From assembly GCF_056746865.1 (NCBI RefSeq), contig NZ_CM163382.1: 64,000 nucleotides of DNA, one strand, 5' to 3'. Positions within the stretch are counted from its first letter, which is position 1. Every line of letters begins with the position of its first letter. Positions 10,826 to 13,488 of the stretch are shown here, one piece after another. The translations under genes were made by a program, and so were the position numbers. The notes under the pieces were generated by a model, which saw nothing but the letters and a program-made list of their open reading frames with translations, did not search any database and had not been told where the DNA came from.

Positions 10826-11202
10826 ACATTCCCTCTATAGAGCTTGCCCTTCTCTCACAGAAAATGAATAAATAAAACTGCTGCACCGCAAGAATCGCGT
10901 TCGATGTGACTATGATCGTATCCGGTGAGTACAGCTTTGATCCAAAGGCTGGTTTTCTGTGATGATTGACCAGCCTCAGAGTATTGATGACACCACCGTT
11001 CATAACAGATCGGCATTACTATGCATAAGTACTGTCTCATATTCTCGCCAAAACACTTTTTAATGCCTTTGCGAATTCATCCAGACTTATATTGTCAATT
11101 TTTTGCCCAACGACGACTGACTCCGAAACATCGGCCATTGCGGGCCATCGCGTTTTGTAATCAGCATAAATTGCAACAACGGGAGTATTATTGGATTTGC
11201 CC

Positions 11203-12108
11203 CTATATTTCCAGACACCTGTTATCACTTAACCCATTACTGGCCCGCTGCCGTAGATATTCCCGTGGCGAGCGATAACCCAGTGCACTATGCGGATGCC
11301 ATTCGTTATAATGCTCGAACGCCTCTGCAAGGTTCTTTGCTGCCGTTAACCCGTCTGGTTTAGGCATGATACTGATGTAGTCACGCTTTATCGTTTTCAC
11401 GAAGCTCTCTGCTATGCCGTTACTCTCCGGACTCCGCACCGCCGTGTTCTTCGGTTCAAGCCCCAACATCCGGGCAAACTGCCGTGTTTCATTAGCCCGG
11501 TAGCATGAACCATTATCCGTCAGCCACTCTACTGGAGACGCCGGAAGCTCGTTGCCGAAGCGGCGTTCCACCGCTCCCAGCATTACGTCCTGTACTGTTT
11601 CACTGTCGAAGCCGCCCGTAGTGACTGCCCAGTGCAGTGCCTCACGGTCACAGCAGTCCAGCGCGAACGTGACTCGCAGTTTTTCTCCGTTATCACAGCG
11701 GAACTCGAACCCGTCAGAGCACCATCGTTGATTGCTTTCTTTCACGGCCACTTTGCCAGTATGTGCCCGTTTCGATGGCGGTACAGCGGTTTTTCGCTCA
11801 AGCAACAGCGCATTCTGGCGCATGATCCGGTAAACACGTTTGGCATTGATCGCAGGCATACCATCAAGTTCGGCCTGTCTGCGAAGCAGCGCCCATACCC
11901 GACGATAACCATACGTGGGCAGCTCTCCGATAACATGGTGTATACGGAGAAGCACATCCGTATCATCTGAGTGACGGCTGCGGCGACCATCTTTCCAGTC
12001 ATCGGTTCGTCTGAGAATGACGTGCAACTGCGCACGCGACACCCGGAGACAACGGCTGACTAAGCTTACTCCCCATCCCCGGGCAATAAGGGCGCGTGCG
12101 CTATCCAC
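11203..12108 (-). CDS. insD: IS2 transposase OrfB (DDE integrase domain)
   Basis: 301-aa ORF, recognised as IS2 InsD. Confidence 0.9.
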
Positions 12109-12431
12109 TTTTTTGCACGCCCGTATTCAACGGCTTCTTTAAGGAGTTCATTTTCCATCGTTTTTTTGCCGAGCAGGCGCTGGAGTTCTTTAATCTGCTT
12201 CATGGCAGCAGCAAGTTCAGAGGCAGGAACGACCTGCTCTCCTGCGGCCACAGCAGTAAGACTTCCCTCCTGGTATTGCTTGCGCCAGAGAAATAACTGG
12301 CTGGCTGCCACACCGTGTTGCCGGGCAACAAGGGAGACCGTCATTCCCGGTTCAAAACTCTGCTGAACAATAGCGATCTTTTCCTGTGTAGTACGCCGTC
12401 TGCGTTTCTCCGGTCCTAAGACATCAATCAT
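12066..12431 (-). CDS. insC: IS2 OrfA (HTH protein)
   Basis: [25 protein letters not shown]...; 121 aa; overlaps insD as expected for the frameshift fusion. Confidence 0.9.
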
Positions 12432-12522
12432 CTGCTCTCCAATGACTAGTCTAAAAACTAGTATTAAGACTATCACTTATTTAAGTGATATTGGTTGTCT
12501 GGAGATTCAGGGGGCCAGTCTA

Positions 12523-13488
12523 ATTATAGGCACTTGCCATATGTAATATTGAGGTGTCAGGAGTTATTGCGATATAAGCATCTTTTATGATTGCTGCTGA
12601 ACGTTTAATCGAGGGTGATAAGGATAAACGGTAGACATTATTATAACAATCCACTAATACCCTGGCTTTATCTTCCCCTTTTGGTCCATGAACGATCACT
12701 ATTGGTATATCTGTTTCACTTTGAATTTTTGCTATTAGATTTTCTGCAATCGATAATGAAAATGTACGTTCCTGCGAGCTACCTTCTAAATTAAGCGCAA
12801 TGTAAGATCCTAACGATCGCATTTCCTCGCGCACCTCATCGAGTACATCCTCACTTAGTGGCAATTCATATATTGGCCTGACTGCTGGAAAACCCGCCTC
12901 ACGCATCATAAATGCCCATGTCATGGGTACAGGAGCCCGGAGATTCTGATCCATCCGGGACGCGTTCTTGCACAAAGGGGAGTAGCACTTCATGGTTAAA
13001 CCAACAACCTGAAAATTCGTTTTTGCTTTTAACTGACTGATAAATATCATCGTTTTCAGGTTCTTTTTACGCATCGCCTCTATACAAAGATCCGGCGTAC
13101 CGTATTGCTGTGTTATGTTCTTTGCTAAATCTTTTATTTCTTTTAATGTTGCGTGATCCTGCATAGTCATTGTGACTAATGTTAATTTAGTCTTTTCAAG
13201 TTTAAGTGCATTAAACACTTCTAAATTAATTGTCGACGTAACAATTAAAAGATGCTTAATTTTATGCAATTCAAGCGCCCGAATAACAGGAAAGATGGCC
13301 ATAGCATCGCCAATCTGGTCGGGAATATGGATAACAACAAACTCTGTTTTTTCAATATTAAAATTATAAGCTTTATAATCGTAGTAACTAAATGCAATAC
13401 GTCTCAACAATGATGCTAAAAACATACCTAACCTCGCCTCCCTACTGGTTATAATGCATTGCAGTCTATCAGACTCATCATGGCGCAA
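12523..13488 (-). pseudogene. yeeL: glycosyltransferase family 9 (heptosyltransferase-like) gene truncated at its 3' end by IS2
   Basis: ORF 12520..13488 runs into the IS2 end, which supplies the stop; remaining 3' codons continue in the same frame at 11037..11191. Confidence 0.7.

Follow-up and report, generated by a model that had tools for sequence, protein, structure and literature searches.

Recent insertion of an IS2 isoform into yeeL, truncating and most likely inactivating a family 9 glycosyltransferase

Introduction

The literature searched for yeeL holds nothing on the function of its product, and the gene figures there as a site for neutral integration or as a landmark for a convergent gene. 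In the DNA analysed here, a stretch of 64,000 nucleotides from contig NZ_CM163382.1 (RefSeq assembly GCF_056746865.1) that is called the window below and to which all coordinates refer, the yeeL reading frame is broken by an insertion sequence. This raises the questions of which element is present, what is left of the gene product, and whether the interruption is an old feature shared with other lineages or a recent event in a single strain. The explanation favoured here, almost certainly the correct one, is that an active IS2 isoform transposed recently into an intact yeeL, truncating and most likely inactivating its product.

Identity of the inserted element

A complete IS2 of exactly 1331 bp occupies 11192..12522, with both ends read directly from the sequence. 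IRL (TAGACTGGCCCCC... / TAGACTGGCCCCCTGAATCTCCAGACA...) lies at 12522 and IRR (...GGGGCAAATCCA) at 11192, which places the element on the minus strand. Its parts are as follows.

11192..12522, minus strand: complete IS2, an isoform 95.8% identical to K-12 IS2A in a gapless alignment, pointing in the same direction as yeeL
12481..12522, minus strand: IRL, 42 bp, defined by its sequence and by the IRL/IRR alignment; its outermost triplet, TAG at 12522..12520, terminates the truncated yeeL frame
11192..11232, minus strand: IRR, 41 bp, with one difference from K-12 IS2A, at IS position 1305
12066..12431, minus strand: insC (orfA), 121 amino acids, IS2 repressor TnpA, no amino acid difference from K-12 InsC1, Pfam HTH_Tnp_1
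12108..12114, minus strand: A6G (AAAAAAG) programmed -1 frameshift window at the joint of orfA and orfB, at IS coordinate 409 as in K-12 IS2A
11203..12108, minus strand: insD (orfB), 301 amino acids, the integrase-core catalytic part of the transposase, Pfam rve, rve_3 and HTH_21

The two ends are imperfect inverted repeats that align with 31 matches and one gap. The published IS2 is about 1331 bp long with an IRL of 42 bp and an IRR of 41 bp, and its A6G window serves to join orfA to orfB (PMC3299598). The K-12 copies IS2A and IS2F (IS3 family, IS2 group) share with the window copy the length of 1331 bp, the 42-bp IRL and 41-bp IRR, the overlap of orfA and orfB at A6G, the 5-bp duplication and the InsC protein. 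The latter is 100% identical to that of K-12 despite 21 silent nucleotide changes, and scores 276.4 bits against the NCBIfam model for IS2 TnpA (NF006928, cut-off 229). InsD similarly exceeds the cut-off of the IS2 TnpB model (NF006918; 707.8 bits, cut-off 597), and differs from K-12 InsD1 at 10 of 301 residues (96.7% identity). Against IS2A as a whole, there are 56 mismatches and no gaps, and InsC, InsD and the A6G window are intact.

By the ISfinder convention, a DNA identity of about 95% or more marks an isoform of the same IS. The 95.8% found here falls within this range, although at its border. As far as its sequence allows a classification, the element is IS2 by every structural criterion, in the form of an isoform that diverges by about 4% and is not of the K-12 type. 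The database labels also differ from those of K-12 IS2A, as RefSeq names copies of this isoform only “IS3 family transposase” and not “IS2 family”. Plasmid p573-1 carries a copy that is 100% identical, identity reaches 99.9% for many others on chromosomes and plasmids, and copies at 99% identity or higher are present in 1780 records. This abundance of near-identical copies points to an isoform that is currently mobile, widespread and presumably active.

The target site and the interrupted reading frame

The element is bordered by a direct repeat, and on either side of it lies one part of yeeL. The start codon was taken from the intact gene annotated for WP_000477906.1, the sequence of which is identical.

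11187..11191, no strand: target-site duplication ATTAT, IRR side, present only once in empty-site genomes
12523..12527, no strand: target-site duplication ATTAT, IRL side, completing a perfect 5-bp direct repeat
12523..13425, minus strand: 5' part of yeeL, codons 1-301, with ATG at 13425..13423 and the IS-borne TAG at 12522..12520 as its stop
11037..11186, minus strand: 3' remnant of yeeL, codons 302-350 and the stop codon, cut off from promoter and start

When the IS and one copy of ATTAT are removed, the flanks form a continuous ORF of 1053 bp and 350 codons on the minus strand, placing the insertion between codons 301 and 302. This restored ORF is, base for base, the gene for WP_000477906.1, a 350-amino-acid “glycosyltransferase family 9 protein” of strain HKUOPY1, and the IS2 insertion is the only lesion of yeeL in the window. 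The joined flank, 1628 bp in length, is present as a single piece at 100% identity in at least 30 complete E. coli genomes. In raw window coordinates, the two parts of yeeL lie one frame apart, because 1336 mod 3 = 1, and they come into phase only after 1336 bp have been taken out.

These results largely agree with a preliminary description made from the letters of the window alone. Its central observation, a complete 1331-bp IS2 with a perfect 5-bp ATTAT duplication, is borne out by the ends and repeats as read directly, and its choice of name holds for the family and the element, with the qualification that this copy is a divergent isoform. It had also proposed that the flanks, once joined, would form a continuous ORF and could be aligned to yeeL from IS-free genomes; the joined flanks are continuous over 350 codons, and the restored ORF is identical to intact alleles. 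The statement that the frame resumes in the same phase beyond the IS is correct for the restored gene and incorrect for the window itself, given the shift of one frame. Lastly, the glycosyltransferase had been described as about 50 codons short with an IS-encoded tail. The loss is indeed 49 codons, but the tail does not exist.

The truncated product has 301 residues, ends in ...ILHMASAYN*, and includes no IS-encoded residue, because the IS2 left end opens with TAG in the yeeL frame. Translation gives this stop directly after Asn301, which rules out an IS-encoded extension of YeeL. The remnant on the other side encodes residues 302-350, TPVVAIYADYKTRWPAM...LARI*. A 63-codon ORF (11037..11228) that begins inside IRR and runs into the remnant was also considered; it is in a different frame than insD and is unsupported as a gene.

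The yeeL gene is located between yeeJ, which is convergent and downstream, and shiA, which is divergent and upstream, as in K-12 (synteny with K-12 positions 2,048,166-2,066,158). It is monocistronic, with no co-directional gene downstream, and with shiA divergent and yeeJ convergent, a polar effect of the insertion on the neighbours of yeeL is therefore not expected. A strong hairpin terminator of the convergent yeeJ is found at 10795..10822. As IS2 is co-oriented with yeeL, transcripts of the latter would enter the element at IRL. The gene is AT-rich, with a GC content of 38% against 49% for the window. In K-12 MG1655, yeeL (b4497) is a pseudogene as well, and shares with the window allele its place between yeeJ and shiA, its orientation and its length of 1053 bp, with 31 nucleotide differences (97.1% identity). 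Unlike the window allele, b4497 carries no IS and is interrupted by a nonsense mutation at codon 235 (CAA to TAA, Q235*), and the two alleles are further separated by 12 amino acid substitutions.

The YeeL protein and its lost segment

Restored YeeL matches the Pfam family PF01075 (Glyco_transf_9) with 29.5 bits (cut-off 22) over residues 232-321, a region that straddles the break. An AlphaFold model based on the homologue alignment has a pLDDT of 86.8 and a pTM of 0.85. A sequence search of the PDB with restored YeeL gave no match at E<=1, and the best structural matches from Foldseek are all enzymes of the GT9 family, 3TOV, WaaF (1PSW) and WaaC (2H1F, 2GT1, 6DFE), with TM scores of 0.64-0.73, sequence identities of 13-15% and, for 3TOV, 1PSW, 2H1F and 2GT1, E-values of 1e-14 to 1e-10. 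Based on the Pfam match and the predicted fold, YeeL is assigned to the GT-B fold and to glycosyltransferase family 9, as a heptosyltransferase-like protein. It shares PF01075 with the LPS heptosyltransferases WaaC and WaaF, the predicted fold superimposes on 3TOV, 1PSW and 2H1F with TM scores of 0.66-0.73, and the DTSxxHxA and then the P-x-x-A-x-Y motifs are conserved. Unlike these enzymes, which are only 13-15% identical to it, YeeL falls far below the NCBIfam equivalog cut-offs for heptosyltransferase I and II (37.8 versus 185.3 bits), and by this measure of sequence similarity it is not an equivalog of either.

The importance of the last 49 residues can be judged from an alignment of 37 YeeL orthologues (38-39 homologues overall) down to 52% identity, plus one relative that is 25% identical. 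The orthologues are from Escherichia, E. albertii, Pseudocitrobacter, Erwinia and Rosenbergiella. All aligned homologues reach through the C-terminus, and 15 of the 49 lost residues are at least 90% conserved. Four of these, P303, A306, Y308 and R314, are invariant, and K312, T313, W315, P316, M318, E323, V327, G328, I331, E338 and F339 complete the set. The lost segment contains the conserved YxDYKTRWP loop, the YKTRWP motif of which is found in the 3' remnant. In the AlphaFold model, the lost part consists of two strands (304-309 and 322-328) and a C-terminal helix (336-349), and the strands are predicted to belong to the nucleotide-sugar-binding domain of the GT-B fold. The loss of two core strands, the conserved loop and the C-terminal helix suggests, from conservation and modelled fold, that truncated YeeL is most likely inactive.

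Loss of yeeL in other genomes

Inactivation of yeeL is not confined to the window, and this bears on the idea that its loss is itself advantageous, for example through a change of a surface glycan, with IS2 as a recurrent means of knocking out the gene. Under such an explanation, the insertion would not be neutral. Independent inactivations are found in K-12 (by Q235*) and S163-2 (by an internal stop), in H10407, BKQ37E and 2017.17.03CC (by IS2 plus IS1), in FDAARGOS_1249 (by IS2) and in 1919D62 (by IS3), which is the recurrence that selection would produce. An accessory gene that is dispensable, AT-rich (38% GC) and under relaxed selection would, however, be expected to show the same pattern of loss. 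Intact alleles of 350 amino acids are moreover very common, as they form a cluster of 10,923 member sequences, and 4,936 of the 5,426 complete E. coli genomes cover at least 80% of the yeeL locus in one place. Selection for the loss of yeeL is thus possible, but it is not needed to explain the data, and as an account of the insertion in the window it is improbable.

Age and strain specificity of the insertion

The ATTAT junction with IS2 was found in none of the 5,426 complete E. coli genomes, and the query for the IRR-side junction was covered to at least 80% in only four of them, in each of which IS2 occupies another position. Among complete genomes, Z1323CEC0012 (chicken, South Korea) is the closest, and it has an empty site and an intact yeeL. 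Its right flank shows no mismatch over window positions 12523..27135 (14,613 bp), the alignment of its left flank (6931..11201, 4.3 kb) has two mismatches and one gap, and the remaining differences from the window are mobile-element events. Metagenome contigs, from assemblies of a kind that usually breaks at IS copies, were scanned for the junction ACGGGAGTATTATTGGATTTGCCCC with no match. The near-identical relative with an empty site, the perfect duplication and the identity of the IS with other copies together indicate, at the level of sequence comparison, that the insertion is simple, very recent and strain-specific. The preliminary description had called it simple and probably recent, and the empty site and near-identical flanks of the nearest complete genome confirm this.

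An alternative is that the insertion is old and was inherited in common with lineages whose yeeL is interrupted by IS2 at a nearly identical point, among them ETEC H10407 (NC_017633.1, ETEC_RS28140/RS11385). In H10407 and SEC470, each of the two junction queries gives a single uninterrupted alignment of about 97% identity, and IS2 points the same way as in the window; in H10407, the insertion also falls in the same region of yeeL, splitting off a C-terminal fragment of about 50 codons. The H10407 element nevertheless lies at a coordinate offset by 3 bp, is flanked by GGTAT instead of ATTAT, differs in the terminal base of IRR and is only 98.4% identical to the window copy. Its flanks differ by 2-3% and represent another yeeL allele, with an extra IS1 further upstream in the gene. 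The different insertion coordinate, duplication and flank alleles rule out shared descent with H10407 and mark its insertion as an independent event. As the flanks in the window are identical to those of empty-site genomes, an old shared insertion of any kind is highly unlikely.

The possibility that the IS2 copy was wrongly placed in yeeL during assembly was considered because most E. coli genomes contain several copies of IS2 (a median of four places per genome) and the window is taken from an assembly. A perfect duplication at the exact termini of the IS is the mark of real transposition, and not of repeat collapse or a misjoin, and comparable real insertions are present in other finished genomes, so that an artefact is very hard to credit. 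Least tenable of all is a rearrangement junction, produced by IS2-IS2 recombination or by an IS-mediated deletion or inversion that joined unrelated flanks: IS copies are common substrates of rearrangement and the window differs from its relatives mainly by mobile-element changes, but the same ATTAT is present on both flanks, which lie next to each other in colinear order in all genomes with an empty site and restore the ORF exactly.

Surroundings of yeeL in the window

Several further differences from K-12 and from Z1323CEC0012 were observed in the window. Next to the asnT tRNA gene, an islet (2728..6930) stands where K-12 has about 3.5 kb of the 5' end of yeeJ. It harbors two integrases, one of the P4 type that is split (2790..3419 and 3513..4151) and another on the minus strand (5462..6346). 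What remains of yeeJ has an in-frame stop near 9273. With its 5' end replaced and its frame interrupted, yeeJ, the adhesin gene that adjoins yeeL, is therefore itself a pseudogene.

The IS5H of K-12 is absent at window position 26252. At 27135..27313 lies an IS2-like left-end remnant, with a perfect 27-nt match to IRL followed by 180 nt at about 84% identity; it lacks a right end, and beyond it lies debris of an IS66-family transposase at the edge of the island equivalent to CP4-44. In the comparison of 27369..39244, Z1323CEC0012 differs from the window mainly by having extra copies of ISCro1 (IS66-like) and ISEc10, and the recent divergence of the two strains is therefore dominated by IS movements.

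Recurrent IS2 insertions between yeeJ and yeeL

At least eight other sampled genomes carry an independent IS2 in the interval formed by the 3' part of yeeJ and yeeL (window-equivalent 10281..12708), all in the same orientation as in the window; the searches favoured same-strand matches, and this co-orientation may be an ascertainment effect. The insertions are listed by the window-equivalent position of their target-site duplications.

11184..11188: H10407, duplication GGTAT, IS2, 3 bp from the site in the window
11160..11164: BKQ37E, duplication ATCAG, IS2
12704..12708: FDAARGOS_1249, duplication GGTAT, IS2
12676..12680: 2017.17.03CC, duplication CCCTT, IS2
11019..11023: S163-2, duplication CTATG, IS2
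10938..10942: WS4437A-1, duplication TGATC, IS2
10281..10285: DETEC-P829, duplication AATAA, IS2
in yeeJ: PK8275, duplication GTAAT, IS2

Shigella sonnei provides a further observation. Draft contigs of this species with yeeL all end at ...CATATGGCAAG, at about window position 12535 and about 10 bp from the site in the window, and its partial YeeL of 297 amino acids is the representative of 1596 clustered sequences. The insertion of a repeat element at this point is suspected in S. sonnei, the interrupting sequence being absent from the contigs.

With the window included, there are at least nine independent insertions in this AT-rich interval of about 2.5 kb, two of them no more than 3 bp apart and a possible third within about 10 bp in Shigella sonnei. 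It may tentatively be proposed that the interval is a preferred landing zone for IS2 and that this clustering is not due to chance, although the proposal is at present a doubtful one. Such a preference could be caused by the structure of the target, as in bent or H-NS-bound DNA, or by selection for the loss of yeeL. IS2 is said to prefer sites near intrinsically curved DNA (PMC3299598).

A model for the disruption of yeeL and its implications

In the sequence of events proposed here, an IS2 isoform would have jumped into an intact yeeL between codons 301 and 302, duplicating ATTAT. By analogy with published work on IS2, a member of the IS3 family that transposes through figure-of-eight and minicircle intermediates (PMC3299598), this would have followed the copy-out/paste-in pathway. 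The yeeL frame would then run directly into the TAG at the outer end of IRL, yielding the product of 301 residues, and the enzyme, lacking the last 49 of its 350 residues, which form part of the predicted GT-B fold, would most likely be inactive. The loss of yeeL was probably selectively neutral.

For annotation of the source strain, yeeL should be recorded as an IS2-disrupted pseudogene (12523..13425 and 11037..11186) and not as a short gene with a hybrid tail, and the element itself as an IS2 isoform. Beyond annotation the case matters little, as it is a textbook, ordinary IS2 knockout of an accessory glycosyltransferase gene. It nonetheless illustrates cleanly a very recent knockout by an IS, with more than 14 kb of flank identical to that of an empty-site relative, and the insertion could serve as a strain marker. 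If the clustering of insertions between yeeJ and yeeL is indeed non-random, it would bear on how IS2 chooses its targets and on the dispensability of an uncharacterised family 9 glycosyltransferase.
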